IMG/VR virus record: IMGVR_UViG_3300012683_000001
Coordinates: 1,406-65,405 of that record
Length of the DNA stretch: 64,000 nt
Direction: 5' to 3' (one strand)
Origin: a virus
Part shown: positions 30,878 through 51,681 of the stretch, in pieces
How the letters are laid out: each line of letters starts with the position of its first letter
Position numbering within the stretch: the stretch's first letter is position 1
The notes under the pieces: generated by a model
Seen by the model: the letters and a program-made list of their open reading frames with translations, nothing else
Database searches by the model: none
Told to the model about the DNA's origin: nothing
Translations under genes and position numbers: made by a program

Positions 30878-30891
30878 CCATCAACTGATGG
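30878..30891. promoter_or_regulatory. Palindromic operator copy 1 (CCATCA-AC-TGATGG).
   Basis: Member of the seven-copy CATTCCATCA-NN-TGATGGAATG family. Lies in the 5' UTR of 30569..30862. Confidence 0.6.
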
Positions 30892-30921
30892 AATGCTAAT
30901 AGCCAAGTTGCATAGAGTTTT

Positions 30922-31269
30922 TTATATAGCCTTGTCCAATTCCTTAATGATATTTTCGATCTCAGTGCTCTCCGGGTTCTCTCGTGTCCAATTACCCTTA
31001 CCCCAACACTCTACACATAATGTTTTAATCCAAGCTAAAGGGCGAGGTTCACCCGGCTGACCACATTCTTCACAGATGGTGTAAGACTCTTTCTCGGCAC
31101 GTTGTATTTCTTGAAAAACTTCATTAGAAGCAACAGCAACATAAAATCTTAGCCCACCAAACTTCTCTTTAACTTGTAATATTCCTACATTATTTATTTC
31201 GCATAGGTTTACTAATCTCGTAACTAAAGGTCGCCAACCTTCGCCTATACCCGTACACCAGTCAGTCAT
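30922..31269 (-). CDS. Zn-ribbon protein.
   Basis: CxxC...CxxC: CEECGQPG...CVECWGKG. Confidence 0.4.
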   Translation of the reverse strand: MTDWCTGIGEGWRPLVTRLVNLCEINNVGILQVKEKFGGLRFYVAVASNEVFQEIQRAEKESYTICEECGQPGEPRPLAWIKTLCVECWGKGNWTRENPESTEIENIIKELDKAI

Positions 31270-31601
31270 TTTAATTCCTCAATCTTCTCTAACAATTCTG
31301 TTATGTCATCGGGCTCTAGTCCAACAATCACATCTTCTGTGATTCCAGAGTCATAACACAACTCATCGTTCTTGAGTACTGCTAACTCAAATCCATGGAT
31401 CATGGGGCCAAAGATCACGCTGGCCCCATAATTATTTTTAAACTTGACATGCGCTCGCATGAAACCCGTGACCTTAAAGCGGTCGTCAAGCTCGTGCCAA
31501 TTCGTAAACTGAAGATCAGTAAACTTCACTTCTTCTCGCCTACATTCAGAAACGGTATCGGCGCACCCGCATAGATCGCTTCCGGTAATGTCCCACTCCA
31601 C
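31266..31601 (-). CDS. Hypothetical protein.
   Basis: 111-aa ORF overlapping its neighbours. Confidence 0.35.
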   Translation of the reverse strand: MEWDITGSDLCGCADTVSECRREEVKFTDLQFTNWHELDDRFKVTGFMRAHVKFKNNYGASVIFGPMIHGFELAVLKNDELCYDSGITEDVIVGLEPDDITELLEKIEELK

Positions 31602-32470
31602 TTCTGTGCCTGCACAAGCGAGACTTCAATCCGCTTCAACTCCAGCACTTGTGGATTGGTCGAAATGGCGTGAGCCGTCACTTCCAATGCCCGAGCGTTG
31701 GCTTCTGCGTTTTTAATTGTGGCATAGGCAGAACCATCTGCTGTTGCTTTAACTGCTGATGCTTCTGCTTCTGCGATGGCCACCTTCTGTTTCTGCTCTG
31801 ATTCAACAGTCTTTAGTTTATTGTCAGCCGCTTGGCGTAGCTGCTCTTGCGTGACCTTCTCATTAATGGCTTTCATATATGATTCACTGAAAGCAAAATT
31901 CCGCATGTCGATGTTCACGACATGAGCACCATATAGTTCCAGCTTCTTACCCAAGGCCGCATAAATATCCGATGAGACCAATGCTCGTTTTGCAATCAGG
32001 TCAGGAGCGTTGTATTTAGCTGTGACTGCTTTAAAGATTTCATGCGTGGCGGTTTGGACATAGCTGGACAGATCACCGTCATGGCTATACTTTTCATAAA
32101 CCTCTGCCACCTTATCGGTCTCGATGGCATACCGTACCGTGAGGCTAACGGCCACTGGCTGTGTATCACTTGTTGCGCCTTGCGCATTCTCAACATCAGC
32201 CTGCTCTGATCTAATACTAAATAATGCCAACTTACGCCATGGGGGTAGGACTGCTAAACCTTCACCCTCAATACCTACAATCTTGCCGAATTGCGTGACG
32301 ACGCCACGGCTACCTGTAGGGACTGAATAGAAAGGCCAAAGAATAGCCACAAGAATCCAGATGCCAATGACACTCCCTATATCTTTAAAAATAGCAAACC
32401 AATTAGGGACAGTTTCTTTTCCGTAACTCCTTGTAACAACTTGTGTCCAACGATCTTTGATGTTCATCAT
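31526..32470 (-). CDS. SPFH / band-7 (stomatin/prohibitin-like) membrane protein.
   Basis: N-terminal TM segment GIWILVAILWPFY, an SPFH core VVTQFGKIVGIEGEGLAVLPPW, and a C-terminal coiled coil. Confidence 0.7.
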   Translation of the reverse strand: MMNIKDRWTQVVTRSYGKETVPNWFAIFKDIGSVIGIWILVAILWPFYSVPTGSRGVVTQFGKIVGIEGEGLAVLPPWRKLALFSIRSEQADVENAQGATSDTQPVAVSLTVRYAIETDKVAEVYEKYSHDGDLSSYVQTATHEIFKAVTAKYNAPDLIAKRALVSSDIYAALGKKLELYGAHVVNIDMRNFAFSESYMKAINEKVTQEQLRQAADNKLKTVESEQKQKVAIAEAEASAVKATADGSAYATIKNAEANARALEVTAHAISTNPQVLELKRIEVSLVQAQKWSGTLPEAIYAGAPIPFLNVGEKK

Positions 32471-32580
32471 TTTTCATCCTTTGCTTTAGGTATAAACCCG
32501 TACTTTACTCCGAACCAATAAGCGACTCTTACTAATCCATACGTTGTAAGAGCCAGTATAAGAATGTCTACAATAATCAT
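32467..32580 (-). CDS. Tiny TM peptide (37 aa) coupled to the SPFH gene.
   Basis: MIIVDILILALTTYGLVRVAYWFGVKYGFIPKAKDEK. Its TGA overlaps the SPFH ATG. Confidence 0.3.
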   Translation of the reverse strand: MIIVDILILALTTYGLVRVAYWFGVKYGFIPKAKDEK

Positions 32581-32582
32581 AA

Positions 32583-33707
32583 TTATTCATCCGTATCAAA
32601 AGAAACAGCCGCCGGCTGCGCCGTTACTGGGCGAATGCCGTGCTTTTTACGATTAATCGAATCAATCAGTTTCTCAGTTGCGCCCCCATGCTTACGATGA
32701 ATGGCATAAACTTTAGCGACTGTAATAGACCCTGATTCTCTCTCTAGTTCCTGCATCGCCATGAAGCTACCCCCTACTTTCGTCATCAATGCCTTGGCTT
32801 CTTGCTTGTCTAAATTCCGAGTGAACATATGCATGAAGCACCGACCGGGACGAACGAGTGCGTCATCGACACTATTAATGCTTGGCAGATTCGTAGAGAA
32901 GATAATCTTTCTACCCTGCGCCTGTGCAATACCATCAGAGATATTAAGAAATCGATGTAGATGCTTGTTGCCTGATGATCTGGGTGTGATCATATGATCC
33001 GCATCTTCAATCAACAGTACATCGTAACTGCCTGAAATAAAGTGGATAAAAACCTCGTCGGACTCCCATACTGTAGCATCACCTGAATAAATAGCGCTTG
33101 CCCGCTCACCCTTACGAACGGTCATTTCACGCAAAATGGCTCGCACCAACCGAGTCTTACCCATACCCGGTGGACCTTGAAGAATCAAAATAGTCTCTTC
33201 GGCTTCTAGATAATCATTAATAAACTTATCGACACCATTCTTAAGAGTGGGGTAAGCCTCATCAAGAACACTAGTCGGCTGCTCAACTGTCGAGGTACCT
33301 TGCAATTTACCATTAACAGTGAACCGCCATTCTAGATCAAAAAGGATTGTGTCGATCTTGAAAGGGAGGATTTGATCCATGAAGAACTTGAACTCAGTCT
33401 CAAGAACTTCCTTGTCTCCTGCCCACATTTTAATAAAGAAATTAGCGTAGCTTGGTTTACCGCTTGCGGTAATGACAGCAAACGCGCCATCACGTTGAAG
33501 AATGACTTCCCCAAGTCCCGCATGTTGTACTTCCCATTTACTTGTATTAAGTGAATCAATACAAATTTTAGGATCTTGTTTAATAACCACCCGCTCATCG
33601 CGGTAGAATTTACACTGATCTTTATGATCAATTAGAAACTGATGACGCCGAATTTCTTCTACATCATCAGATCTTAATCCCAAACTAACTTTCGTGGGAT
33701 CAGTCAC
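32583..33707 (-). CDS. AAA+ ATPase (classic AAA clade).
   Basis: Walker A ILQGPPGMGKTRL, Walker B LLIEDADH, and arginine finger VRPGRCF. Confidence 0.75.
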   Translation of the reverse strand: MTDPTKVSLGLRSDDVEEIRRHQFLIDHKDQCKFYRDERVVIKQDPKICIDSLNTSKWEVQHAGLGEVILQRDGAFAVITASGKPSYANFFIKMWAGDKEVLETEFKFFMDQILPFKIDTILFDLEWRFTVNGKLQGTSTVEQPTSVLDEAYPTLKNGVDKFINDYLEAEETILILQGPPGMGKTRLVRAILREMTVRKGERASAIYSGDATVWESDEVFIHFISGSYDVLLIEDADHMITPRSSGNKHLHRFLNISDGIAQAQGRKIIFSTNLPSINSVDDALVRPGRCFMHMFTRNLDKQEAKALMTKVGGSFMAMQELERESGSITVAKVYAIHRKHGGATEKLIDSINRKKHGIRPVTAQPAAVSFDTDE

Positions 33708-33727
33708 TTGATTAACTCCTGTAACGA

Positions 33728-34594
33728 TTACAACACCATCAATCGATCCGCTTCGTTGGGTCCGATGGTAATGGCCTGACGTGCAGCATCATCCCCACGA
33801 CCCCGACGAACCAAATTCCATGCCTTGACCATCATCTTTAATTTAAGTTCTATTGGATATGTAGTTAGACGCTGAGCGTCCCTGATAAGTAAATTCCGAA
33901 GGATATATTCAGCATCCTTGGAGTGCAGCCCCTCGCCTGTATAGAATCTTCGCATGAACGCATCAGACTTATCTTCATCCTTGCGTTGAAAAATTTCATA
34001 ACAGGCCGTAGTCGCACTCAACGACAAAGGCCGAGCATCCCGAGGGAAACCCATCAATAACTCAGCACACCGCCAAAGACTTTTATGTTTGGCCACATAA
34101 GTCAATACATCAGTATTGCCAATCTTCTTACGGTCGCCATAAAAACCCGCTTCAATACGGTGACAATACCCAACCGCTGATCCCACGGCGTTAACAATAC
34201 CTTTTGCAACATCTGGATACCACAACGACAGAGCATCAGCAGGCCCACGCACACGTCCAGTATCTATTGTTTTAAAGGCATCGCGCTTAATCCCATAGAT
34301 CACCAGACTATCGATAGTTTCACCCGAATCAATCACTGCCAAGAGTCGATGCTGGCCGTCCAGTACATCCTCATTGTCACTGATAATGATGGCCTGCCCA
34401 TTCAGTTGCCAGTTCCCTAATGTCATTTCACGCCCAAGAAACTCTACGTGACGTTTTTTGATGGGACGATTATGTGTATTGGCTTTTAACCACAATGCCG
34501 CAATATTGGGTGTGATCGATTGAACTTCAATGATCAAATCTGGCGCACCGAGTATTTGATTGGATTTGCTTTTCAGTTGGATGATCTTAGGCAT
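33728..34594 (-). CDS. ParB/Srx-like nuclease-domain protein.
   Basis: ParB N-terminal motif DGQHRL. Confidence 0.6.
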   Translation of the reverse strand: MPKIIQLKSKSNQILGAPDLIIEVQSITPNIAALWLKANTHNRPIKKRHVEFLGREMTLGNWQLNGQAIIISDNEDVLDGQHRLLAVIDSGETIDSLVIYGIKRDAFKTIDTGRVRGPADALSLWYPDVAKGIVNAVGSAVGYCHRIEAGFYGDRKKIGNTDVLTYVAKHKSLWRCAELLMGFPRDARPLSLSATTACYEIFQRKDEDKSDAFMRRFYTGEGLHSKDAEYILRNLLIRDAQRLTTYPIELKLKMMVKAWNLVRRGRGDDAARQAITIGPNEADRLMVL

Positions 34595-34603
34595 AATAAT
34601 CTC

Positions 34604-35125
34604 TTAAGGCATTTTACCTTGTAGTGTATAAAGTGCTAATGACACCAACATATAACCGGCGGAGTCCTTGTTTGCGATAGCGGCTCGCGCATGGTTTAAA
34701 TAAATGATGGCATCCCCTGTCGGTCCTGCTTCACGCTTCTTATAAGTCCGTTTTTCATCAGCGAGATATTCTTTGGCTTTCTCAACCACTGTTTTCTGCG
34801 AAGGCCCTGCTTTATTAAGCTGATACTTCCCCGGCGTCACCCGAGTGAGAAATCCTTTCTGACAGGATTGTGTTACTGCTTGATAAACTGACAGTGTATT
34901 TTTATCGGGAAAACGATCCGCAACGTCCTGACGTGAGAATACCCTGTCAGGAAAAGCAGTAAAATATTCTCGGATTTGTTCTGCGTTAGTTTTAGGTTTA
35001 ACTGGATTTAACTTTACTTTAGTCATGTTTGTTTCCTTATTTACCGAAGAAATACATCCAATCGTTGTGCTTGAGCTTGAGCCTCGCTTCCGAATTGGCG
35101 TTGAGTACCTGTATCCACCCATCAT
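34604..35125 (-). CDS. Hypothetical protein. The internal MTKVKLNP at 35026 is the likely start.
   Basis: ORF with a basic N-terminal region. Confidence 0.35.
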   Translation of the reverse strand: MMGGYRYSTPIRKRGSSSSTTIGCISSVNKETNMTKVKLNPVKPKTNAEQIREYFTAFPDRVFSRQDVADRFPDKNTLSVYQAVTQSCQKGFLTRVTPGKYQLNKAGPSQKTVVEKAKEYLADEKRTYKKREAGPTGDAIIYLNHARAAIANKDSAGYMLVSLALYTLQGKMP

Positions 35126-36373: not shown

Positions 36374-37144
36374 TTAAGACTTTAACGGTTCAAGCAAGAG
36401 TTTCACGAGGGCACTTGCCACAGTCCCGGTTTCCGCGACCGTTTCATTGGCCCGCATCCGCGCTTGCTTGATTTCAATTAACAGTTCATCCACTCGCTTG
36501 ATGGCCTCAGACTTCTGAACAGCAGAAGCCGCGCCACTTCGCTTAATGGTTGTAAATTTGCCCACCACAATGTCCTTGTTCACAGCCTGAACCTGAGCAG
36601 GGTGTTCCTTGGTGGCTTCCTTAAGCGTGACAGGAATCATTTGCTTCTCAGTCTTGGTCGTTTCCTCGGGAAACTCCGTGGCATAAACATAAGGACTGAT
36701 ACCCGCATCCACCCGCCAATGCTTCGTGGCGTCCAGCGTGGGGATGGCATCGTACAATTCCCGAATCTTCACCAGCCGTGCCTCCAGCCCAAGCAGTTCA
36801 TCCACTGGCATTTCAGCCAATAAAATCTCCCCCTTCCACATCACGGTGCCGGTGGCTTTACGGTTCGTTGCATTCTTTTGATACTGCAAGTTCTCCGCAC
36901 GACTAAAGATATCTAATGCATACTCTAGCGTTTCGTACACATTAGTCGTGACCGGCTTCTCTTCGCGTGCTTGATCCTCTACCGCTTTATTAGCTGGATT
37001 ATCGTCCAGCATATGAAGCGACTTGGAATGTCCATCAAAGAAGTGGGTGGGATTCTTGAACTTCTTCAAGGTATCTGCTAACAGCGTATTCCACGCACCG
37101 GTCGGCGTTTTTTCTGCCGCCAGCAGTTCATGTAACTTGGTCAT
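36374..37144 (-). CDS. Hypothetical protein (256 aa).
   Basis: An operator lies upstream. Confidence 0.45.
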   Translation of the reverse strand: MTKLHELLAAEKTPTGAWNTLLADTLKKFKNPTHFFDGHSKSLHMLDDNPANKAVEDQAREEKPVTTNVYETLEYALDIFSRAENLQYQKNATNRKATGTVMWKGEILLAEMPVDELLGLEARLVKIRELYDAIPTLDATKHWRVDAGISPYVYATEFPEETTKTEKQMIPVTLKEATKEHPAQVQAVNKDIVVGKFTTIKRSGAASAVQKSEAIKRVDELLIEIKQARMRANETVAETGTVASALVKLLLEPLKS

Positions 37145-37179
37145 GTTTGTTTCCTCTAGTTTATAACTCTAATAACAAT

Positions 37180-37193
37180 CCATCATGTGATGG
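37180..37193. promoter_or_regulatory. Palindromic operator copy 2 (CCATCA-TG-TGATGG).
   Basis: Same family. Lies upstream of 36374..37144. Confidence 0.55.
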
Positions 37194-37195
37194 AA

Positions 37196-37414
37196 TTAAA
37201 CTAACAACGCAAGTCCTTTCCTCAAATGCTTGATTGCACGAGTCAGTACCGCAGTATTAGCTGCGCCACTTGAACTCTTCCCTTTCTTCTTCCCATTCTG
37301 GTCCTTCCACCTGATCTGGTAGACGTAACCCGGTTTGATCTTGAGCCGCTTGGCAATAGCCGTTGGCTTAAGACCTTTCTTAAGAAGCGAGCGGATCTTT
37401 TCTGAATTGGTCAT
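37196..37414 (-). CDS. Small HTH DNA-binding protein.
   Basis: LKPTAIAKRLKIKPGYVYQIRW. Confidence 0.45.
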   Translation of the reverse strand: MTNSEKIRSLLKKGLKPTAIAKRLKIKPGYVYQIRWKDQNGKKKGKSSSGAANTAVLTRAIKHLRKGLALLV

Positions 37415-38208: not shown

Positions 38209-39233
38209 GGTACCTTATCGCACACAAACCACGATTGCTGTCCCGCTGTGTACGCCATGGAATCTGTGTCACTCCAAAATTCATTGGTAATAGGGATTAG
38301 ATGTGTCTTGTCTAAATGATCTAATTTCTTATTGAGGTTTTCCCTGTTTACCTTACACAAGCCCAAAGAGGCCATTAGATTATCTCTAAAAGAATTGGGT
38401 ATGTTGTCTAATCCATCATAAACCCCAAACGGAACGACAGCATGATCTATTGCATCTTTAGAAAAGAGACTGGGGAGATACCTCCCATTGTGATAGGTTT
38501 CTCTAAATACTTTTACAAATGAAGCGCAGTGGAGCGCCCCAACGAGTAATCCCTTTTGTCCCCCTGCTCTAGCAATAAAATACTTTTCACGATCAAACAT
38601 TTGCGCTGCGTCTTTCAGATACTTCTCGAAAGCCTTTTCTTGCTTCTCGACCCGCTGCCATGTCAGCAAAATATCGTTCTGATAATCCGTAGGCACATCA
38701 GCCATCGTCTTACCACCCAATAGAATATGAAGTAGCCATTCCTGAGAGATTCGATGTAGATTCATGTCCTCATGGCTGTACTTGTTATAGTTATCCAAAT
38801 AAGTCCTAACGAGAGTATCAATAACATCAGGCAATTTTCTTAGCTCTGCATCATCTATCATTTGTTTTACAGTTAATCCAGCGCCCTTAGTCTCATCTCT
38901 GAGCTTTTGTGCGATATACCGAATACTTTTACTCTCGATGACCGTATCCGTTGCGGGTAAAGCCCTAATAGAATCCGACAGGCCAAGAATAGAATAGGCT
39001 TTCTCACTCCCACCACCTGTGACTTTTAAGTACACCGCTTGTACGCCCGCTGCCGTTCCCATAATGACGCTTTTAGCGATTGTGGGCCCACTTTGGTCCC
39101 AATACGTTGCAAAAAGTTTGCCTCCACTGTTGTAGTACAGAGTCAACACCAAGGGCCAGAGATCAGACTGCTTCATCTTATCTTTACTGGCTTGTAAGAT
39201 ATTTCCATAGGGATAAAACACCGCATCAGTCAT
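38205..39233 (-). CDS. Hypothetical protein (342 aa).
   Basis: Long ORF with ATGA coupling. Confidence 0.45.
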   Translation of the reverse strand: MTDAVFYPYGNILQASKDKMKQSDLWPLVLTLYYNSGGKLFATYWDQSGPTIAKSVIMGTAAGVQAVYLKVTGGGSEKAYSILGLSDSIRALPATDTVIESKSIRYIAQKLRDETKGAGLTVKQMIDDAELRKLPDVIDTLVRTYLDNYNKYSHEDMNLHRISQEWLLHILLGGKTMADVPTDYQNDILLTWQRVEKQEKAFEKYLKDAAQMFDREKYFIARAGGQKGLLVGALHCASFVKVFRETYHNGRYLPSLFSKDAIDHAVVPFGVYDGLDNIPNSFRDNLMASLGLCKVNRENLNKKLDHLDKTHLIPITNEFWSDTDSMAYTAGQQSWFVCDKVP

Positions 39234-39423
39234 GTTTGTCTACTCCGTAAGCGATTTCAACAAATTTATGGAAAAATGTGGGATTAGCAAACTGCATAAA
39301 CCAACCATGTTCTCTGTCATGAACATAACCTTCATTGAGTATCTTCCATAAAGTCATCAATGAATTATCGATCATGGCCCTCGCTATGATCTGAGTCTTT
39401 ATCATTGGTATATAACAAGTCAC
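39226..39423 (-). CDS. Small protein, 'TLxxLWxxLN' family member.
   Basis: SLMTLWKILNEGY. Confidence 0.4.
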   Translation of the reverse strand: MTCYIPMIKTQIIARAMIDNSLMTLWKILNEGYVHDREHGWFMQFANPTFFHKFVEIAYGVDKHD

Positions 39424-39434: not shown

Positions 39435-39650
39435 CTAATACCGTTCCACCACATGATGGAGTTCTATTAACTCACTCGGGATATTATCCATCCACGCTGA
39501 TGATGCTTCTACAGAAAGATTAAACCGGTAGTCCGCGTTATCAAAGATATAATTTTCATTTAGTATTTTCCACAGCACTGTCAGTGAACTGACAATAATA
39601 GATTTAGCGAAATACTGATTCATGATCAATGGCAGTAAGGAATTACTCAA
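39435..39650 (-). CDS. Small protein, 'TLxxLWxxLN' family member.
   Basis: SLTVLWKILNENY. Paralog of 39226..39423. Confidence 0.4.
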   Translation of the reverse strand: MSNSLLPLIMNQYFAKSIIVSSLTVLWKILNENYIFDNADYRFNLSVEASSAWMDNIPSELIELHHVVERY

Positions 39651-44616: not shown

Positions 44617-45519
44617 TTAAACCCCTTGAAATTTGCTTAGAATATCGTCCACTTCAGACTTGACTGACATCCTCATGTGATCACTTTCTCGTAACGCATC
44701 CAGACTTATACTCCGTAGAGTTTTGTCTAGCCTAGCGCGTGCATCCTCCAGTGATTGATTGGCTGTCACGTTGAATGACTTAAAAGAATCACACAACTCC
44801 AAGGCCCGCGTGATGGTGCTGTCATACAACTTGTGGCGTCGGGTTTTAATACTCCCATCAGCGGCTGTGACTTGCTCAACGTTACACGTGGAACTGATCG
44901 ACTGCATGACCTTGATCAGTTGTTCAGTCTGCTTAGTTAAAATCCCATTGACTATATTATTAGACTGCCGTTCATAATGATTATACAAATCATCTGCCAA
45001 GTCTTTACTCAGCTGAACACGAAAATCCCCCTCGGGCACTTCTGAAGTGTATAAATCCACACCAAACTTGTGGAAAAGCTCCTGCGGCGTGGGATAAAAC
45101 GCGGCATTAAACAGCGCACCCATCTTGAATGCAATGCCTGAAACAATGGTCGGGTATTCATCAATGAAGTCTGCCGCGAGCTTATTAAAATTCGTCTCAT
45201 GCTCGTTATATTCTTTCATGAACTGCGGATAATCAGCGACAGGCAGGATTTCCATGCCCGCTCTAAACGGATAGGTGCGCAGTTCCTTCCAGTTATAGAT
45301 CGTCTGTCGGTAATTCAGCACGGCTTTATGCCGGGCGTTCCCGGCCAGCAAGTGCTGTGTGATGCTCGCGGCCTCACGGTCCGCTTTTTTACCATCCGTG
45401 AATTCTTTAGAAGAATCTTTATCTTGCTTGGTGAGTGTACAGACCCGCACATCAATGTTTAGAAGGATACAAGAGGTCGCCAATGAAGTGATGTGTGCGG
45501 GCTTACTGAGCATGGTCAT
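44617..45519 (-). CDS. Hypothetical protein (300 aa), first gene of an operator-controlled unit.
   Basis: An operator lies 14 nt upstream and a promoter about 80 nt upstream. Confidence 0.45.
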   Translation of the reverse strand: MTMLSKPAHITSLATSCILLNIDVRVCTLTKQDKDSSKEFTDGKKADREAASITQHLLAGNARHKAVLNYRQTIYNWKELRTYPFRAGMEILPVADYPQFMKEYNEHETNFNKLAADFIDEYPTIVSGIAFKMGALFNAAFYPTPQELFHKFGVDLYTSEVPEGDFRVQLSKDLADDLYNHYERQSNNIVNGILTKQTEQLIKVMQSISSTCNVEQVTAADGSIKTRRHKLYDSTITRALELCDSFKSFNVTANQSLEDARARLDKTLRSISLDALRESDHMRMSVKSEVDDILSKFQGV

Positions 45520-45532
45520 ATGAACTTCCTTT

Positions 45533-45546
45533 CCATCACGTGATGG
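45533..45546. promoter_or_regulatory. Palindromic operator copy 3 (CCATCACGTGATGG).
   Basis: Perfect 14-mer directly 5' of RBS AAAGGAAG. Confidence 0.6.
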
Positions 45547-45602
45547 ATCGTTAATAACTGTATTGACTACAATGAGTTAGGAGACGAGGCTCTAGTGTAT
45601 AT

Positions 45603-45631
45603 AGTATAACGCAACTAGACAGCGGTGTCTA
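45603..45631 (-). promoter_or_regulatory. Sigma70-like promoter (-35 TAGACA, 17-bp spacer, -10 TATACT).
   Basis: Read on the - strand. Shares the 16-mer TGTATATAGTATAAC with the 49.42 kb promoter. Confidence 0.5.
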
Positions 45632-47561: not shown

Positions 47562-47569
47562 GTTCTATT

Positions 47570-47942
47570 TCCTATTAACGATGTGGATAAGTTGGACTGT
47601 GGCATGGGCAGAATGCCAAAGGATATTGCCCCAATAAACCAACACGACAAGAATGAAAGCAACCCAGATGATCTTCTTAGTCACGGTTAAATCTCTCCTC
47701 AATCCACTTGTAAGCAATGGCGAGGAGCATCAGTGGCAGCAGCAAATACCAGAGCCACCTTGCACCATCGGGTTCATTGTTCATGTTTTGTCCTTTTGTT
47801 TGCGTAATGTAATCTGTAGTTTCCTTCTCTCCCATACCCGCTGTTCCCAGTAGTCCTGCCAGCCCAATATAAGAAGGAGGATTTGCAGGCTGATTAGAAC
47901 TACGGCGAGTACCTGCAAAGCAATGATGAGTAGTTTAATCAT
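47570..47942 (-). CDS. Cluster of three tiny hydrophobic peptides (about 35-53 aa each), all below the ORF-track size cutoff.
   Basis: MIKLLIIALQVLAVVLISLQILLLILGW... and MNNEPDGARWLWYLLLPLMLLAIAYKW..., with coupled stops and starts. Confidence 0.3.
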
Positions 47943-48312
47943 CAATGGATCACCCCTGTGACCAATAAAATAGGCACGGTATCCTCAGCCGTGGTGCTCA
48001 TGTCGATCTCTGTATTGACCAGCGTGAGCATCTGCTCCATGGCTTTGGCAATCTCGTAGTCTTTTAGTGCGCCCTCTCTGATGAGCTTGATCTCATAGTC
48101 ACGCAAAGCGTGCCCGATGGTGCGCAGTTCAGTCATGGCGTCGGCCTGTGAGATAATCCAACTCAGCGTCCATCCCGGCATTGTCGTCCGGACAATGAAT
48201 CGGAATGTGCAGTGCCGTGATGACACCGGCTTTATCAAGATCCTCCATGAGTTCCTCAAATGTGGGTCGTGAAAGCTCAAGAGAGCTGAGACTCATGAAC
48301 TCATCGAGTTTG

Positions 48313-48642
48313 TTAAATGTTCTCTTTTGCTTTGGTGATTGCTGGCTCATGTGAACTCCAGATGGTGAGTGCTTTGCCGTCGGTGTCGTAAGCGTGGGTA
48401 AAATCTTCTTGAAGATTGTATCTCCGTAGCGCTTCTGTGAATGCCGGGTCTGTTGCAAAAGTTTTTCCTGATTTATAGATCACTTCTTTTTCAATGTCGA
48501 TGACCACATGAATGCCTGAGATATCTGCACCGACGACCACGCCTCGTAGTTTATGTTTACCGGATAATATAATGATTTCACCGACCCTGAAAATAAGATC
48601 AGGTTTATCAGGAGTATCCCACTCTGGATTAAATTCTGTCAC
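48313..48642 (-). CDS. Small beta-rich protein, paralog pair member.
   Basis: RVGEIIILSGKHKLRGVVVGADISGIHVVIDIE. Confidence 0.4.
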   Translation of the reverse strand: MTEFNPEWDTPDKPDLIFRVGEIIILSGKHKLRGVVVGADISGIHVVIDIEKEVIYKSGKTFATDPAFTEALRRYNLQEDFTHAYDTDGKALTIWSSHEPAITKAKENI

Positions 48643-48946
48643 GTGATGGAACCTTATGGCGTCCAGCGATCAGAGGATAATTTCTTCCCGTATTGGTTCT
48701 GACATGCTCGAATTTATGTTCCACTAATGGCCACCGGATAATGAAATCTCTTTCGATATCGATGATCACATGGATTGCTGCATGGGAAGCCCCCACGACG
48801 ACACCGATTTCTCCAGCGTATATCGGTCCTCGTTTTCGGGTCAGGACTGTCTCGCTGAATTTGATCACATGCCCCACGCGGTAGGTCAGTCGTGTTCTCT
48901 TCGATCCTGTTCTCTTGGGATTACTCATGGGCCAGCGGGGTGTCAC
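48629..48946 (-). CDS. Small beta-rich protein, paralog pair member.
   Basis: RVGHVIKFSE...GEIGVVVGASHAAIHVIIDIE. Confidence 0.4.
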   Translation of the reverse strand: MTPRWPMSNPKRTGSKRTRLTYRVGHVIKFSETVLTRKRGPIYAGEIGVVVGASHAAIHVIIDIERDFIIRWPLVEHKFEHVRTNTGRNYPLIAGRHKVPSRDRI

Positions 48947-49337
48947 TTAAGCTGTCACGCGCTGCTGCGTTCTTCTGCTCGTCCGTCCACGTGATGGCCG
49001 GAGGGCTCGTCACCGGGTCACGCGGCGGGTTGCTCTTGTCCCACTGCGCCCACCGTGCCGCCAGCTGCTTGGCCTTGGCACGGGCTTTGGCTTTGAGTGC
49101 GAGCTTGCGCTTGGCCTGTGAAGTGGCGTTGGTCACGTGTCCCGTGGCAGGGCCTTTGTTGACCTCGTAGGCGGTGATGGCCTGCGAGTCGGTGGGGTGG
49201 TGGCGGATGTGTCGGCCCAGTTTCTTTTTCTTGTTGTCCTCGGTGGTGAGGAACTGCATCTTGTAGTAGGAGCGGTTCCTTGGGATGACTTTGAGTTTCT
49301 TGGCCCCTTTCGGGGTCTTGACGGTGGCCTCTGGCAT
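48921..49337 (-). CDS. Basic Lys/Ala-rich protein, probably DNA-binding.
   Basis: KRKLALKAKARAKAKQLAARWAQW. An operator and promoter lie upstream. Confidence 0.45.
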   Translation of the reverse strand: MPEATVKTPKGAKKLKVIPRNRSYYKMQFLTTEDNKKKKLGRHIRHHPTDSQAITAYEVNKGPATGHVTNATSQAKRKLALKAKARAKAKQLAARWAQWDKSNPPRDPVTSPPAITWTDEQKNAAARDSLSDTPLAHE

Positions 49338-49365
49338 GGGAGCGGTTCCTTGTGCTGTTAGCGTT

Positions 49366-49379
49366 CCATCACGTGATGG
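49366..49379. promoter_or_regulatory. Palindromic operator copy 4 (CCATCACGTGATGG).
   Basis: Perfect 14-mer followed by GAGTGCTAATAGG. Confidence 0.6.
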
Positions 49380-49427
49380 AGTGCTAATAGGCGTTGGGCT
49401 GGTTTTGGGTAGACCTCCATTGTATAT

Positions 49428-49456
49428 AGTATAACATAACTATATATTTAGAGCAA
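49428..49456 (-). promoter_or_regulatory. Sigma70-like promoter (-35 TTGCTC, 17-bp spacer, -10 TATACT).
   Basis: Read on the - strand. Shares the 16-mer with the 45.6 kb promoter. Confidence 0.5.
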
Positions 49457-49473
49457 CCTTTTAATAAACTATT

Positions 49474-50034
49474 TTATTGAGGCACGTGCTGGTATTCCCA
49501 TCGCCATGGGTCGGTTTCCCACGTCTGATAGAGCGTTGTGCCTCTTTTGTTGGAGGGGTTGGTAAAAGCTTTAGCGGTGGGGTTGTAGCAGTCGATAATG
49601 AGGGCGATCAACGTAGGGCTGATGAACTCGTGCTGGTCGATCAGGGTGGCAAGGGGGGTCCTGAGCTTCGTGTAGGCGTTAAAGATCAATGAGGCGGTAG
49701 CGTGGTCGATGCGGTGTTTAATGCGTGGGTTGAGTGGTTTATAGGTATCCTTGAAGGGTAAATAATTTATTTTACGGTGTGATTTGTATTTTAAGGCCAT
49801 GTAAACCTTATAATTTTTCTTTATAAGTACTTGACTTTCATGGGCACGAATATCCCGAGACAGATCTACTTCGTCTTTTTTACGTTTACCCCTAACGATG
49901 CTGGCTATTGTGCGGTAGCTGACGTTGTATTTCTTTTGTAGTGATTTAAGTGTGGTTTTGTTGGTGGGTGTGCGACGAGCGTATTCATTACGAATGATAC
50001 GTGCAGCGGGTGTACTGATACGTTTGTTACTCAT
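49474..50034 (-). CDS. Early protein with an N-terminal HTH.
   Basis: LQKKYNVSYRTIASIVRG. Confidence 0.45.
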   Translation of the reverse strand: MSNKRISTPAARIIRNEYARRTPTNKTTLKSLQKKYNVSYRTIASIVRGKRKKDEVDLSRDIRAHESQVLIKKNYKVYMALKYKSHRKINYLPFKDTYKPLNPRIKHRIDHATASLIFNAYTKLRTPLATLIDQHEFISPTLIALIIDCYNPTAKAFTNPSNKRGTTLYQTWETDPWRWEYQHVPQ

Positions 50035-50255
50035 AGGGTTTTCCCCTTTTTCTTTTTCTTCTGAGGTCTGCGCCTGAGTGGTTTATGGTAGGCAAGCCTG
50101 AAAAATGTATTTTCAGTAATCCCATATTTATCTAATAATTCATCTAGTGGGATACCGTCGTGTAGATGTTCTGTGAGTATGACTGGGACCAACGCTGAGA
50201 GACGATACCCTTTCTTACTACGTGTATAATACTTTTTATATCCATAGTCGGACAT
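50031..50255 (-). CDS. Small basic HTH protein, first early gene.
   Basis: GIPLDELLDKYGITENTFFRL and a poly-Lys tail. Confidence 0.4.
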   Translation of the reverse strand: MSDYGYKKYYTRSKKGYRLSALVPVILTEHLHDGIPLDELLDKYGITENTFFRLAYHKPLRRRPQKKKKKGKTL

Positions 50256-50285
50256 GAGTTTACCTTTTGCTTAAATGGAGGTTTT

Positions 50286-50433
50286 TGTACGTTTGTACGG
50301 GCCTGTACGACTAAAAATTGATGGTAGTCTAGAATAAAATTGTAGGTTGTGGGTCAGCTATTTGTCAAGTACGTTTTCTCTAAGTCCCTAATAATAATAA
50401 TAATAATTTTATAATAGATAGTAGTAGTAGTAG
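50286..50433. repeat. Repeat cluster: three TGTACG copies at about 9-bp spacing, (TAA)6 at 50389-50407, and (TAG)5 at 50419-50433.
   Basis: Read directly from the sequence. Confidence 0.8.
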
Positions 50434-50677
50434 AGGATTTAGGAGTATTTAATTTGTACGCAGAAATTTCGAGAGTATATGCCTACCCTTTAGACTTTCG
50501 GATAAAATTTTTTCCGTTTTGCACGACACATGCCGAACCCCAAAAACCCTTCTGGGAATACATATACTCTTCGGATTTCTTGGTACAATTCAAATTGATC
50601 TAATTAACTGCGTAAACGATGTAATAATCAATCACTTAGGTAGTATATTCGTACAGCATTACCATCAATTTTTAATC
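50311..50677. repeat. Long-range inverted repeat: TAAAAATTGATGGTA at 50312-50326 pairs with TACCATCAATTTTTA at 50660-50674.
   Basis: 15-bp perfect inverted match bracketing the microsatellites. Confidence 0.7.
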
Positions 50678-50697
50678 TAATTTTGTTCCATTTTTAC

Positions 50698-50779
50698 CAT
50701 CTAAGCAAACGGTAATAGCATTCCATCACACGATGGAGTGTTAATACCTTTGATGTTCACATCATCTAAGCAAACGGTA
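50698..50779. repeat. Direct repeats CATCTAAGCAAACGGTA at 50698-50714 and 50763-50779.
   Basis: 17-bp perfect direct repeat. The first copy abuts operator copy 5. The second is followed by a CACGTG box. Confidence 0.7.
50723..50736. promoter_or_regulatory. Palindromic operator copy 5 (CCATCACACGATGG, imperfect).
   Basis: Flanked by TAATAGCATT on the 5' side and AGTGTTAATACC on the 3' side. Confidence 0.5.
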
Positions 50780-50860
50780 TTGCCACGTGCTATCGTGCGC
50801 ACGCACACAAATCGGGAACTGGTTTCAAGCAGCCGCGTGGACTGTAATAACATTCCATCA

Positions 50861-50882
50861 CGTGATGGAATGGTAAAGACAA
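50861..50882. promoter_or_regulatory. Palindromic operator copy 6, a perfect 22-bp palindrome CATTCCATCACGTGATGGAATG.
   Basis: Its reverse complement equals itself. Confidence 0.65.
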
Positions 50883-50910
50883 AAAAACCCGCCTTACGGC
50901 GGGTTTAATA
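50881..50910 (-). terminator. Rho-independent terminator after 50926..51573.
   Basis: On the - strand, ACCCGCCGTAAGGCGGGT followed by TTTTTTT. It is A-rich on the other side and could work in both directions. Confidence 0.6.
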
Positions 50911-50925
50911 GTTGGATGGTGAGGC

Positions 50926-51573
50926 TTACTTGGTCGCGTAGGCGGCGCTGATCCGCTTGGTGACCGTGGCAAGCAAGGTTTCGAGTTCTACCTTGTCCTT
51001 GCGGTTCCGCTTGCAGATGGCATCAACGTGCTGAGCCGTGAACTGATCCGTGGTTGCCGGATCGCCGCGCTCCCGCTTGGCGTCATTGGCCATGCGTTCC
51101 CACCGGTCGTAGCGTGTCGAGAAGAAGGAACTGCACACTTTCCGCATGTCCCGCACTTTCCCGCGCAGCGTGGCGATCTGATCCGGCTTCCCGGCCAGCT
51201 TCTGCGCGTCCTCTTTCGAGAGTCCGATGGCCCATGCCGCAGTCAACACATGCGCGCCCTTGTCATGGACTCGAATCGTGCCGTCGGCCTGACTGAGTAC
51301 ATCGTAACGCGTGTCCACCTGTCCGGGCAGTGCGCACCAGTAGTTCTCAACTGCACTGCGGAATGCAGCCTTAGCCTCCGGGTCGGCTGCTTCGATCTTG
51401 GTCACACCATCCGGAAGCTTGGTCGTGATAGTGAACACTTTCAGCACCTTGCACTCGCCGATCCTCTCGGACAGGTGTTGTTCCGTTTGCAGCATGTCGT
51501 GCGCCAGTGCGCCGATGCGCTGCGACACGGGCAGTACGTTGCGTACCGCGTCTGCGATTACCTTGTTAATCAT
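50926..51573 (-). CDS. Hypothetical protein (215 aa) in a GC-rich island.
   Basis: Visibly higher GC than its neighbours. Has its own operator upstream and a terminator downstream. Confidence 0.45.
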   Translation of the reverse strand: MINKVIADAVRNVLPVSQRIGALAHDMLQTEQHLSERIGECKVLKVFTITTKLPDGVTKIEAADPEAKAAFRSAVENYWCALPGQVDTRYDVLSQADGTIRVHDKGAHVLTAAWAIGLSKEDAQKLAGKPDQIATLRGKVRDMRKVCSSFFSTRYDRWERMANDAKRERGDPATTDQFTAQHVDAICKRNRKDKVELETLLATVTKRISAAYATK

Positions 51574-51659
51574 GTTTGCTCTCTCCTAGATCACTAGAGA
51601 CATTCTCTAGCGTGGTAAGAGTATGCGCCTTATTCCTGTCACTGTCTAGTTTTACTTTA

Positions 51660-51681
51660 CATTCCATCAGGTGATGGAATG
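51660..51681. promoter_or_regulatory. Palindromic operator copy 7 (CATTCCATCA-GG-TGATGGAATG).
   Basis: Lies about 90 nt upstream of 50926..51573 in the divergent region. Confidence 0.55.

Follow-up and report, generated by a model that had tools for sequence, protein, structure and literature searches.

The window analyzed here covers 64,000 nt of a 70.9-kb source contig from an uncultured phage of ~71 kb. It contains eight copies of a 22-bp palindrome, for which the most probable role is that of a binding site for a sequence-specific regulator and not that of a simple RNA hairpin. The reading that we favor, and to which we would give about an even chance on the basis of the sequences, is that the copies are putative recognition sites of one sequence-specific protein and function as DNA operators or roadblocks.

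A search with CATTCCATCAnnTGATGGAATG, in which up to three mismatches were allowed, yielded exactly seven matches in the window, with the 22-mers beginning at positions 30874, 37176, 45529, 49362, 50719, 50851, and 51660. None was found in 100 dinucleotide-preserving shuffles. The seven copies of the original prediction are thus all present and non-random; the positions given for them were the starts of the 14-bp core, and that of copy 6 should read 50855 rather than 50865. A position weight matrix derived from the seven copies revealed an eighth clear copy on the minus strand at 39442-39463 (AACTCCATCATGTGGTGGAACG), which scored 35.7 bits versus a maximum of 9.1 bits in 20 shuffles. A decayed ninth copy scored 13.7 bits with the same matrix. 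All of the copies are confined to the leftward early/replication module, and the matrix scan showed none across the structural genes (~38 kb). Beyond the window, the source contig (6.8 kb) likewise contains no copy. Copy 6 is indeed a perfect 22-bp palindrome, as had been claimed, and copy 7 is perfect apart from its center. Only two deviations from the core are observed in the window, those in copies 5 and 8, both of which are G.U-compatible on the transcribed strand, and the CACGTG center varies even among the window copies. Most copies are flanked on both sides by TATTA-like sequences, and the extended element spans ~36 bp and is oriented, upstream of genes. Listed here are the copies and the elements that surround them.

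30874-30895, minus strand: copy 1, between two cistrons 59 bp apart, with a 3′ arm that overlaps the SD
37176-37197, minus strand: copy 2, overlapping the stop codon of the 72-aa helix-turn-helix (HTH) gene, with the DUF7873 gene 32 nt downstream
37196-37414, minus strand: 72-aa HTH protein, the sole DNA-binding candidate conserved across the phage family
39442-39463, minus strand: copy 8, 184 nt past the DUF2201 gene, with the SD of the small ORF 39226-39423 7 nt downstream
45529-45550, minus strand: copy 3, beginning 52 nt past the -10 hexamer of TAGACA-17-TATACT
45603-45631, minus strand: sigma70-like promoter TAGACA-17-TATACT, upstream of copy 3
48632-48653, minus strand: probable decayed copy, GGTTCCATCACGTGACAGAATT, left arm intact and right arm with three changes, at the junction of ORFs 48629-48946 and 48313-48642
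49362-49383, minus strand: copy 4, beginning 44 nt past the -10 hexamer of TTGCTC-17-TATACT, 24 nt from the ATG of gene 48921-49337
49428-49456, minus strand: sigma70-like promoter TTGCTC-17-TATACT, upstream of copy 4, with GTTATACTATATACA in common with the copy 3 promoter
50256-50925, minus strand: non-coding control region (670 bp), housing copies 5 and 6
50719-50740, minus strand: copy 5, inside the non-coding region
50851-50872, minus strand: copy 6; gene 50926-51573 ends in an intrinsic terminator whose T-run lies 8 nt upstream
50885-50906, minus strand: intrinsic terminator (9-bp stem with six G-C pairs, T7 run) that ends the first leftward gene, directly before copy 6
51660-51681, minus strand: copy 7, the first in the direction of transcription, within a divergent control region; a promoter-like TAGACA-17-CATACT lies 11 nt downstream and the first leftward gene (50926-51573) 87 nt downstream

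The copies lie in non-coding gaps, but the intergenic 5′ placement described for all of them does not extend to copy 2, given its overlap with a stop codon, or to copies 5 and 6, which are not directly 5′ of a gene. The proposed fusion of copies 1 and 3 to ribosome-binding sites is evident. In both, the 3′ arm continues into AAGGAA, with the ATG of gene 30569-30862 positioned 11 nt past the 22-mer of copy 1 and that of a conserved 300-aa gene (44617-45519, SD AAGGAAG) 9 nt past that of copy 3. Copies 3 and 4 were correctly placed downstream of sigma70-like promoters, and the 15-mer common to these, TGTATATAGTATAAC, is exact at both 45596 and 49421. The claim that the palindrome heads every minus strand transcription unit is not supported. 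Copies occur in only 6-7 of the ~22 gaps of at least 25 bp, no sigma70-like promoter was found upstream of copies 1, 2, and 8, all three of which reside in intercistronic gaps, and the strongest such promoter (TTGACA-18-TACAAT, 50368-50339), which lies within the 670-bp control region, has no palindrome downstream. The 670-bp control region is characterized by (ACT)n/(ATT)n AT-rich tracts and short inverted and direct repeats, and is syntenic with an iteron-rich, origin-like non-coding region in related phages.

For the comparative analysis, 83 related loci were retrieved via the 300-aa protein encoded downstream of copy 3, which together with the window gave 84 sequences. At least three identical copies of one short palindrome, and up to 10-12, are present in 60 of the 84. 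The palindrome is lineage-specific, with CGTATTAnnTAATACG, CGTATCAnnTGATACG, CCTATCAagTGATAGG, TCCAC-N6-GTGGA, and others being observed, and these motifs are found at the same places as the window copies, namely at the 5′ end of the 300-aa gene, where relatives carry their own motif at the position of copy 3, after the DUF2201 gene, and on either side of the first early gene. Copy 8, for example, is the positional homologue of the second palindrome of locus L236 and of the post-DUF2201 sites of the CGTATTA phages. The sites of the relatives are restricted to -5.6 to +6.1 kb around the 300-aa gene. The first copy adjoins a -35-like TTGCGA hexamer, some copies are located directly 5′ of terminators, and the upstream stop codon often abuts the palindrome. 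Both the window and its relatives have good sigma70-type promoters where early promoters would be expected. Taken together, the sequence comparisons demonstrate sites that are non-random, confined to one module, and conserved in position despite sequence turnover among related phages.

Within one genome the half-sites are near-invariant and the two central bases are free, and the center is likewise free in ~200 perfect copies. Core positions 2-6 are essentially invariant. Deviations gather at the ends of one arm, in its innermost and outermost positions, without compensation (C.U, A.G, A.C); indeed, only one compensated pair was observed among 72 deviating positions. By type, the mismatches comprise 10 sense G.U, 29 sense A.C, and 31 others, with no overall wobble bias. 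Between lineages both arms switch jointly (TCCATCA/TGATGGA, CCTATCA/TGATAGG, CGTATTA/TAATACG). The commonest variant has a predicted RNA hairpin of only -2.6 to -4.0 kcal/mol. Of the eight copy regions in the window, three have predicted folds that clearly surpass those of shuffles (z -2.3 to -5.6; the top-scoring region takes in the adjacent terminator), and five do not (z -0.3 to -1.8). These comparisons show that the constraint is on the sequence of each half-site and not on base-pairing. The half-site constancy, the free center, the uncompensated deviations, the joint change of the arms, and the weak fold are in keeping with a sequence-specific, probably dimeric recognition that co-evolves with the site, and not with a generic hairpin. 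The original prediction had left the choice between a repressor site and a 5′-UTR hairpin. The element is a genuine cis element of the early/middle module, and since it is recognized by sequence, "operator" fits better than "hairpin," with the balance leaning toward DNA.

We infer that the ligand, phage- or host-encoded, is a DNA-binding dimer that represses, and its identity is likewise a matter of inference. It would most likely be a homodimer bound to double-stranded DNA, in which either subunit recognizes a half-site (TTCCATCA) and neither reads the central 2 bp. In most lineages the outer pentamers are separated by approximately one helical turn (7-nn-7 or 5-N6-5), as in the operators of dimeric HTH proteins. 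The sites are distributed over a single leftward early/middle operon. Some stand beside the first gene's promoter, around its terminator, and in the origin-like leader; others lie at approximately +40 to +65 relative to two early promoters of sigma70 type; and at several gene junctions a site fills the narrow space from the stop codon to the ribosome-binding site. The bound protein may repress or block the host RNA polymerase at many points simultaneously, as do the mycobacteriophage "stoperators," and thereby shut off or tune the early and middle genes in a coordinated manner. That no phage RNA polymerase or sigma factor to serve the palindromes as promoters was detected in the ORFs scanned also favors sites in DNA. 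So does the placement of the first copy next to promoter-like sequence, namely the TTGCGA hexamer in relatives and the site 11 nt past copy 7 in the window. Several features count against them. A DNA site has no need of an adjacent SD, although genome compaction could produce such adjacency. Positions at +40 to +65 and within the operon are not those of classical operators, both core deviations in the window are G.U-compatible, and neither an integrase nor an immunity repressor was seen. Additionally, the central dinucleotide is strand-biased, with AC outnumbering GT 24 to 4, AG outnumbering CT 19 to 6, and CC outnumbering GG 19 to 3, which a symmetric site does not predict; many of the copies are positional orthologues, and thus these counts are not independent.

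The same features form much of the case for an element acting in the mRNA, which we consider possible but rather unlikely. Here a short stem-loop in the leader or 5′ of the ribosome-binding site would be read by a sequence-specific RNA-binding protein or endoribonuclease that governs the start of translation or cleaves the polycistronic early mRNA into units, comparable to T4 RegA/RegB, Cas6-type hairpin recognition, or the speculated SAS system of Cluster K phages. An SD tetramer is fused in fixed phase, at -1 to +4 from the palindrome end, in 35% and 44% of the copies of the relatives versus 5% and 16% on the mirror side, and an SD association is also seen at window copies 1, 3, and 8 and at both L236 copies. 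The frequently adjoining stop codon, the asymmetric central dinucleotide, the two G.U deviations on the sense strand, the single direction of transcription of all copies, and, in the relatives, the fusion of the family HTH to DUF3310 are consistent with such a role. A conserved stem with a variable "loop," however, is the reverse of what known hairpin-binding proteins read. Moreover, ~200 copies display no covariation and no overall wobble bias, the commonest variant is a marginal hairpin, some copies adjoin a -35-like hexamer or precede terminators far from translation starts, and the window genome carries the palindromes yet has no DUF3310 domain.

It is improbable that the copies are recombination or mobility junctions, that is, either module-exchange cassettes, a role proposed for the PeSL elements that T4-like phages carry, or a very small mobile palindrome that duplicates its target, in both cases with no dedicated binding factor. 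Copy 2 does lie at the 5′ border of a 1.5-kb block that includes DUF7873, a widely mobile gene, and is missing in the closest relative, L235; an exact 17-bp direct repeat, CATCTAAGCAAACGGTA, brackets copy 5 (50698-50714 and 50763-50779); TATTA-like sequences stand on either side of most copies; and in the Ga0214917/23 relatives two of three distinct sites lie no more than ~135 nt from a contig end, as is often the case for repeats. Yet an indel boundary could be detected at just one of the eight window copies, the opposite edge of that block has no copy, and the half-sites are exact while centers and flanks have diverged to randomness. Furthermore, positions are conserved across lineages with wholly different motif sequences, which requires selection on function and not the spread of one element.

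Three further explanations are very unlikely. Promoters, or N4-like hairpin promoters, for a phage-encoded or virion-borne RNA polymerase are suggested by the oriented ~36-bp element upstream of genes, by a perfect TATAAT directly after the palindrome in L167, and by a candidate 1932-aa protein (13681-19479) whose giant gene adjoins ejection-protein genes, a place where virion RNA polymerases occur in N4-like and crAss-like phages. That protein, however, matches LPD38 only, with no sequence match in the PDB, and no ORF scanned gave an RNA polymerase or sigma signal. The good sigma70-type promoters are already in place, just 9-11 nt separate the end of the element from the ATG at copies 1 and 3, and some copies in the relatives directly precede terminators. 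The second takes the copies as generic RNA structures that nothing reads specifically, be they intrinsic terminators, attenuators, RNase III sites, or 5′ stabilizers: every copy can form a stem of 6-9 bp with a 4-nt loop, the placement is intercistronic, and copy 2 was flagged in the terminator scan, but seven of the eight copies have no following U-run, the stems fall far below the ~20 bp that RNase III requires, energies predicted for the relatives are marginal, an Rfam search returned no family match, and identical copies lacking covariation are the opposite of structure-only selection. Finally, centromere-like (parS-type) or replication-related sites for a partition or replication protein are scarcely to be expected, for although the core TCACGTGA of a 16-22 bp palindrome with a CACGTG center resembles the center of bacterial parS (TGTTNCACGTGAAACA) and several copies cluster in or around the origin-like, iteron-rich region in the window and in relatives, no ParA/ParB-like protein was detected in the ORFs scanned, the center is unconserved within the window and different in relatives, and most copies are at gene junctions distant from that region.

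As for the protein that might bind these sites, four HTH candidates had been put forward. The 72-aa protein is conserved in the relatives, where its counterpart is the N-terminal domain of a DUF3310 protein; its recognition helix fails to track the motif type, and it is a weak candidate. At least six different recognition helices occur among phages sharing CGTATTA, and L257, a CGTATCA phage, has a helix type common to phages lacking that motif. ORFs 49474-50034 and 50031-50255 have no homologue in the related loci, most of which cover that early region. The ORF at 22556-22867 likewise has no homologue there, but it is beyond the reach of nearly all related loci, which makes the absence uninformative.

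Among global plasmid and phage regulators with sites dispersed over a replicon, P1 C1 with its operators and RK2 KorB with its palindromic OB sites each act at ~10-20 positions, some at promoters and some far from them, and the sites described here are dispersed in a like manner. SD association is not known to be a feature of those systems, and no C1, KorB, or ParB homologue was detected in the window. The closest known analogues are the ESAS/SAS motifs and the stoperators of mycobacteriophages. The ESAS of Cluster K phages are imperfect repeats of 15-17 bp, 4-14 bp apart, that enclose a SigA-like promoter; a distinct, asymmetric 13-bp SAS is coupled with them (Pope et al. 2011, PMC3203893; Adephagia study 2024, PMC11373665). 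In both cases, inverted repeats recur directly 5′ of ribosome-binding sites and only in the non-structural half of the genome, sub-lineages differ in consensus, conservation is higher in the left repeat than in the right one, departures give no support to RNA pairing, and a DUF3310 protein is present in the phage group. The palindrome here, in contrast, is compact and near-perfect (16-22 bp with a 2-bp center), with no internal promoter and no separate SAS, and its phages are unrelated to Cluster K, with hosts using GGAGG-type SDs and neither integrase nor repressor seen.

The stoperators of mycobacteriophage L5 and Cluster A, recognized by the repressor gp71, are many copies of a short site, placed at promoters and in the narrow spaces between genes of an operon; they share with the present sites a consensus and specificity that vary by sub-lineage and a proposed blocking of elongating RNA polymerase (PMC9283540; see also PMC6550527). 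Stoperators are 13 bp in length, asymmetric, bound by a monomer, and strictly orientation-dependent, in temperate phages with a known immunity repressor. The sites here, in contrast, are palindromes, there are 8-12 of them as opposed to more than 20, and neither a repressor nor a lysogeny module is known for them. The PeSL (promoter-early stem-loop) cassettes of T4-like phages are repeated, indel-associated composites of promoter, stem-loop, and SD between early genes (PMC4122927). In a PeSL the stem-loop comes before the promoter and serves as a terminator, whereas here the palindrome is 44-52 nt downstream of the promoter or the promoter is absent, and PeSL stems vary in sequence, whereas here the sequence and not the structure is conserved. 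The resemblance lies in copies 3 and 4, which follow near-identical sigma70 promoters, and in copy 2 at its indel edge.

The 22-bp palindrome, originally described in seven copies, proved to be a genuine and slightly more numerous feature of the window. A search of the whole stretch with the pattern CATTCCATCAnnTGATGGAATG, allowing up to three mismatches, yielded seven matches (30874, 37176, 45529, 49362, 50719, 50851, and 51660) versus none in 100 dinucleotide-preserving shuffles. A weight matrix trained on these seven copies and their 8-nt flanks recovered an eighth at 39442-39463, which scored 35.7 bits as compared to 9.1 bits for the best shuffle, and a decayed ninth at 48632-48653 (13.7 bits). 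Isolated half-sites, with 14 found and 8 expected, were uninformative. The positions first reported for the seven copies correspond to the starts of the 14-bp core, except that 50865 should be 50855. Also upheld were the promoters predicted for copies 3 and 4. A 15-mer, TGTATATAGTATAAC, is exactly repeated at 45596 and 49421, and TAGACA-17-TATACT was detected by a scan. The distances from the -10 hexamers of these two sigma70-type promoters to the palindrome starts are 52 nt and 44 nt, and the copies lie at about +40 to +65 in the leaders. The features concerned are as follows.

30874 (-): copy 1, short intercistronic gap, no recognizable promoter
37176 (-): copy 2, short intercistronic gap, no recognizable promoter
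37196-37414 (-): helix-turn-helix (HTH) ORF, 72 aa
39442-39463 (-): copy 8, short intercistronic gap, no recognizable promoter
44617-45519 (-): 300-aa gene, downstream of copy 3
45529 (-): copy 3, leader of a sigma70-type promoter
49362 (-): copy 4, leader of a sigma70-type promoter
50719 (-): copy 5, 110 nt beyond copy 6, inside a non-coding region of 670 bp that carries AT-rich (ACT)n/(ATT)n tracts
50851 (-): copy 6, 8 nt past the intrinsic terminator of the first gene
50926-51573 (-): first early (leftward) gene
51660 (-): copy 7, divergent control region, ending 11 nt before a promoter-like -35

Although every one of the eight copies does lie in a non-coding gap of the leftward module, no more than 6-7 of about 22 such gaps are occupied, and the claim that the palindrome heads every leftward transcription unit was thus too broad. 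The copies extend over 21 kb, replication genes included, and many of them occupy short intergenic spaces within operons in addition to the promoter-side positions. The practical yield for this window is a corrected regulatory map, which now shows eight sites, one terminator, and an origin-like leader in addition to two to three sigma70 early promoters.

The window matches the 70,927-bp metagenomic contig k141_2248389 in circularly permuted form, with window position 1 corresponding to about 10762 and position 64000 to about 3975 of the contig. The remaining 6.8 kb beyond the window encodes structural proteins and contains no copies. The leftward genes, from 19.6 to 51.9 kb, code for a primase-helicase, an SNF2-type helicase, a family A DNA polymerase, an exonuclease, a VRR-NUC-type endonuclease, an AAA ATPase, a DUF2201 metallopeptidase/VWA protein, and many small ORFs, whereas the rightward genes encode the terminase, portal, capsid, adaptors, ejection proteins, and a 1932-aa LPD38 polyvalent protein. 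Neither an RNA polymerase, a sigma factor, an integrase, nor ParB was detected among the ORFs scanned. A megablast search with window 44.0-52.5 kb gave no match to cultured phages, the DNA polymerase shows no more than 36% identity to that of Rhizobium phage RHph_TM3_14A, and the 300-aa protein gave no tblastn match; by these comparisons the phage is without a close cultured relative. No match was obtained in Rfam and tRNA scans, which covered the window and four or five relatives. The 1932-aa ORF (13681-19479, + strand) closes the structural block, where it adjoins an ejection-protein homologue. Its only domain match is to the LPD38 "large polyvalent protein" domain, together with a weak LexA-type DNA-binding match at residues 404-453, and its product is probably an injected multifunctional protein. 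Assignment of this giant virion protein as an RNA polymerase was rejected on the basis of the sole LPD38 match and the lack of a PDB match. Between the genes for the helicase and the exonuclease is an ORF (25947-26417, - strand) that resembles an HNH homing endonuclease, has a C-terminal HTH, and probably represents a mobile insertion within the replication module.

The DUF7873 gene adjoining copy 2 (36374-37144, - strand) proved on sequence comparison to be both unusually conserved and mobile. Its homologues, 70-80% identical, occur in unrelated phages without the motif, and for this reason it was of no use as an anchor for finding relatives. Indeed, the protein displays 70-81% identity across phages of quite different genome architecture (loci L229-L234), its gene adjoins the capsid genes in L233, and the block containing it and copy 2 is missing from the closest relative of the window, L235. 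The 300-aa protein, on the other hand, led to syntenic relatives, namely L235 (69% identity), L236, and L237, and 80 of the 369 IMG/VR loci confirmed with its homologue profile were fetched. Not one of the fetched loci contains TCCATCAnnTGATGGA; most have a palindrome of their own instead.

CGTATTAnnTAATACG: about 25 loci, up to 10 perfect copies in 7.2 kb (12 at one mismatch)
CGTATCAnnTGATACG: about 12 loci
CCTATCAagTGATAGG: L236
TTCGACAnnTGTCGAA, TTCACCAnnTGGTGAA, TCCAC-N6-GTGGA, TTCAC-N6-GTGAA, and CCCAG-N6-CTGGG: other loci

At least three identical copies of one pentamer palindrome are present in 60 of 84 sequences (83 loci plus the window), as compared to an expectation of about 0.01. 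On this sequence evidence, the window palindromes belong to a family-wide system of lineage-specific palindromes. If so, the window represents one member of a large uncultured phage family, with at least 369 related stretches in IMG/VR alone, in which homologous early-operon positions are occupied by an exact palindrome peculiar to each lineage. Such a natural series of matched site variants, with regulators presumably matched to them, would provide material for studying how regulatory specificity diversifies in lytic-type phages and a possible source of orthogonal protein/operator pairs. In one locus, L244, the resident motif is CGTATCAnnTGATACG, yet a single perfect CGTATTAggTAATACG site, with both arms in the sister specificity, is fused to a Shine-Dalgarno (SD) sequence at 2642-2657.

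A scan of IMG/VR with a 14-base pattern gave single-copy chance matches only, and a scan of metagenomes and genomes with an 18-base pattern gave mostly chance matches. The exceptions were the 2,660-bp soil-metagenome contig Ga0137412_10079924 (L166), which is 100% identical to window 49750-52409, and contigs L143, L158/L167, and L175 from the Ga0214917/23 samples. In these samples the exact window motif is found on four contigs at three distinct sites (two 5' of genes, two near contig ends). Of these contigs, L167 (the same as L001) is the only one with relatedness shown by protein similarity, its structural gene being 60-69% identical to that of the window. A match in L174/L165 lies inside an ATPase gene and is probably due to chance.

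Relatives are referred to here as CGTATTA or CGTATCA phages according to the half-site of their own palindrome. Comparison of the window with its relatives revealed four homologous positions, at each of which every lineage has its own motif.

Position 1: immediately 5' of the 300-aa gene
Position 2: right after the DUF2201 gene (window copy 8, copy 2 of L236, and the CGTATTA sites behind "...QIND*")
Position 3: both sides of the first early gene, about 200 aa
Position 4: non-coding region 3' of the first early gene, with repeated copies

In the relatives, the sites extend no farther than -5.6 to +6.1 kb from the 300-aa gene, with none in the structural genes of opposite orientation, and the first copy abuts a -35-like TTGCGA. 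Note that in L235 the leader of the 300-aa gene lacks the palindrome and contains instead an unrelated 36-nt nested hairpin, GCATCGGGCATTTACGAATGTAAATCGTCCCGATGC, at 1330-1380; fragments of this hairpin, ATCGGGACGA and GTAAAT, reappear near 120-160 of the same contig.

To judge from its sequence, the non-coding region following the first early gene looks like a replication origin. In the relatives it contains numerous TTGTTCCA/TGGAACAA and CCAGTTC iterons along with an (ACT)n AT-rich stretch. Origin-like regions with (ACT)n/(ATT)n tracts are located as follows.

50256-50700: window
4860-5410: related locus L258
7257-8072: L237

The repeats in the window are unlike those of the relatives. They include an inverted pair of TACCATCAATTTTTA at 50309-50326 and 50660-50677 and a 42-nt imperfect inverted repeat at 50447-50488 and 50554-50595. 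Copy 5 lies between the two units of an exact 17-bp direct repeat, CATCTAAGCAAACGGTA (50698-50714 and 50763-50779), and a third near-copy, inverted, is positioned at 50260-50278, just before the gene at 50031-50255. In L258, the interval from a promoter-like box to the first early ORF contains three ORF-free, G+C-rich segments of 165-240 nt (5590-6180), each with a palindrome ahead of it. These segments match nothing in Rfam or the tRNA scan and could be structured non-coding RNAs. Finally, a duplicated 20-mer, TTAAAGATACTATCTACCCA/TTTAAAATACTATCTACCCA, is observed at window 51793-51812 and 51860-51879, within the divergent region that separates the leftward from the rightward module. The two copies may be tandem promoters, with a - strand -10 of TAGTAT, or binding sites.

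The element itself extends beyond the 22-mer and has a slight polarity, reading G-n-TATTA-r, the 22-mer, and y-TATTA-s on the transcribed strand. Since TATTA is present on both sides, the flanks are near-direct rather than inverted repeats. The window site is built of 10+2+10 bp with a variable center, whereas those of the relatives are 7-nn-7 with invariant half-sites. In the window copies the outer three arm positions vary freely and without compensation (T.T, A.A, C.T), and the 7-bp core is altered only in copies 5 and 8, where both changes are G.U-compatible on the sense strand but too few for significance. The two large classes together supply about 200 perfect copies, and in these the variation is confined to the two central bases, the half-sites being constant. 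Imperfect copies deviate at the innermost position (right arm CAATACG 22 times, left arm CGTATTG five times) or at the outermost, again without compensation; positions 2-6 are essentially never altered, and degeneracy is greater in the right arm than in the left. The mismatches comprise 10 sense G.U, 29 sense A.C, and 31 others, with one compensated pair, and thus give no sign of selection for pairing. The calculated RNA fold energies are -2.6 to -4.0 kcal/mol for the CGTATTA element, -5.3 to -6.7 kcal/mol for CGTATCA, and -7.8 to -11.3 kcal/mol for the window, and five of the eight window copy regions fold no better than shuffled sequence. Both arms switch jointly between lineages. The polarity of the sites is limited to the center dinucleotide and the SD-side flank, and there is neither an internal promoter nor a conserved RBS motif separate from the palindrome. 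Such a pattern of constraint is consistent with half-site recognition by the subunits of a symmetric protein whose specificity co-evolves with its sites, and inconsistent with a hairpin selected for structure only, with a terminator, and with an RNase III site. The TATTAG flank was also considered as a -10 element or MerR-type spacer operator, but its spacing to any -35-like hexamer is wrong, and as part of a promoter it would leave no space for a leader at copies 1 and 3. An NtcA-like GTA-N8-TAC reading of the CGTATTA and CGTATCA sites is disfavored by the strong SD usage of these phages and by the different motif of the window.

Our preferred interpretation, in which we place about even confidence, is that the palindromes are dispersed putative binding sites, within the early/middle operon, of a sequence-specific and probably dimeric DNA-binding regulator. 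In site architecture, both the window and its relatives match the classical operator of a dimeric repressor, which is a dyad-symmetric site of ~14-22 bp with conserved half-sites and an unread center. A classical operator also overlaps or abuts its promoter (-35 to +20). In this respect the copies are divided: copy 7 ends 11 nt before a promoter-like -35, and the first copy in the relatives abuts TTGCGA, whereas copies 3 and 4 lie at about +40 to +65 and copies 1, 2, and 8 are without a promoter. Finally, a classical operator has its cognate DNA-binding protein encoded nearby. Here the candidate counterpart is the family-conserved 72-aa HTH, whose helix does not follow the motif type.

The main rival, which is possible but rather unlikely, is an element acting at the level of the mRNA, namely a translational operator or a processing signal with a sequence-specific protein as its reader. 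Of 94 CGTATTA copies, 33 have an SD-like tetramer that begins at -1 to +4 relative to the palindrome end, as do 19 of 43 CGTATCA copies, in comparison to 5 and 7, respectively, on the mirror side; many of these copies are positional orthologues, so that this count and that of the center dinucleotides overstate the evidence. The latter are strand-biased (AC 24 versus GT 4, AG 19 versus CT 6, and CC 19 versus GG 3). The commonest SD junction in the relatives is ...TAATACGGAGG, with the last G common to both, and the same SD fusion is found in copies 1 and 3 of the window and in both L236 copies. An upstream A-G is conserved in the relatives (79% and 86%), often within or beside a stop codon. Compaction alone, however, could pack the palindrome tightly between the stop codon and the SD sequence.

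With respect to the regulator, four HTH proteins had originally been put forward, and of these only the 72-aa protein has homologues in the relatives, where it constitutes the N-terminal domain of a DUF3310 protein. The DUF3310 domain is absent from the window genome, and a word-based homologue search with the 72-aa sequence returned only itself. A single-sequence AF2 model (pLDDT 75) displays a three-helix HTH (residues 3-40, pLDDT 80-89) followed by a C-terminal helix. The top Foldseek matches are all HTH DNA-binding domains (resolvase, NarL/GerE, and IstA), with E values of 0.28 or greater that are not significant. The HTH head is hypervariable across the family, which is suggestive of a binding factor. 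However, the recognition helices found among the CGTATTA phages are of at least six different kinds, and L257, a CGTATCA phage, has a helix type common to phages without that motif. Because the recognition helix does not track the motif type, the 72-aa protein is only a weak candidate and is unlikely to be the binding factor. No other DNA-binding domains were found among the early ORFs of the window or L258, and the factor could be an unrecognized phage protein or a host protein. The first early gene was rejected as the regulator: it shows no similarity to its positional counterpart in L258 and has no Pfam match, and its single-sequence AF2 model (pLDDT 44) was unusable.

The closest description of the window system is, by analogy, that of the SAS/ESAS elements of Cluster K mycobacteriophages. 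Both consist of inverted repeats immediately 5' of the RBS, are associated with non-structural genes, and have a lineage-specific consensus (PMC3203893). The ESAS repeats lie just 5' of RBS-associated motifs in the non-structural half of the genome only, their consensus is subcluster-specific, the left repeat is better kept than the right, and RNA pairing is unsupported; their function was still unexplained in 2024-25 (PMC3203893, PMC11373665, PMC12699233). They are composed of 15-17-bp imperfect repeats separated by a 4-14 bp spacer enclosing the -35 and -10 hexamers, with a 13-bp SAS at the RBS (PMC11373665). The window palindrome differs in its 2-bp center and in having no internal promoter and no separate RBS motif. 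A further parallel is provided by DUF3310, given that the authors of the Adephagia study speculate that its own DUF3310 protein acts on SAS-bearing genes (PMC11373665), and the relatives of the window carry DUF3310 fusions. If the likeness is real, the family would represent an independent second system for these long-unexplained start-associated repeats. A more elaborate proposal, which we regard as quite improbable, is a control system in which the hypervariable HTH head, usually fused to DUF3310, would be targeted to RBS-abutting palindromes, with site recognition on DNA or nascent mRNA coupled to translation initiation or mRNA processing of the early genes. The same logic, of independent origin, may apply to Cluster K with its SAS/ESAS and the DUF3310 protein gp51. 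Were it true, the natural specificity variants could be used to solve the function of both the motifs and DUF3310.

The stoperators of phage L5 share with the window sites their many copies in the short intergenic spaces of operons and at promoters, as well as the proposed action as roadblocks. They are 13-bp asymmetric sites bound by a monomer in a temperate phage (PMC9283540). Their orientation is tied to transcription, whereas the window sites are palindromic, and L5 has an immunity repressor, whereas neither an integrase nor a CI-like repressor was found among the window ORFs scanned, which included some but not all of the small ones. The PeSL cassettes, in which a stem-loop of variable sequence precedes a promoter (PMC4122927), exhibit a similar promoter/stem-loop/SD theme and an association with indels. 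One of the eight window copies lies at an indel edge. The PeSL order is stem-loop/terminator, sigma70 early promoter, and SD, whereas in the window the promoter is upstream of the palindrome. Lambda-type nut/boxB sites have a conserved loop, a variable stem, and about two copies located directly behind the early promoters, whereas a variable loop, a conserved stem, and 8-12 copies are observed here. A T7-type RNase III site requires double-stranded RNA of about 20 bp, in many cases interrupted by an internal loop, and the stems here are 6-9 bp. An intrinsic terminator, with its G+C-rich stem and U-run, is not matched; copy 2 alone was flagged, weakly, and the true terminator at 50885-50906 is separate. 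N4-type hairpin promoters (a 5-7 bp stem with a 3-nt loop, at early promoters only) go with a virion RNA polymerase gene not detected here, and a parS centromere would call for a 16-bp palindrome and a ParB-family protein, whereas the CACGTG center is not conserved and no ParB/ParA match was found in the scanned ORFs.

A distinct and much denser system is present in Rhizobium phage RHph_TM3_14A (L228; MN988472.1, 11630-53531), in which approximately 54 copies of GTTACCT-N3-5-AGGTAAC, at up to three mismatches, are spread over 42 kb of coding and non-coding sequence in both gene orientations. One copy is about 30 nt downstream of the annotated attL, and many are positioned 2-6 nt 5' of start codons, such that the 3' arm serves there, too, as the SD sequence.
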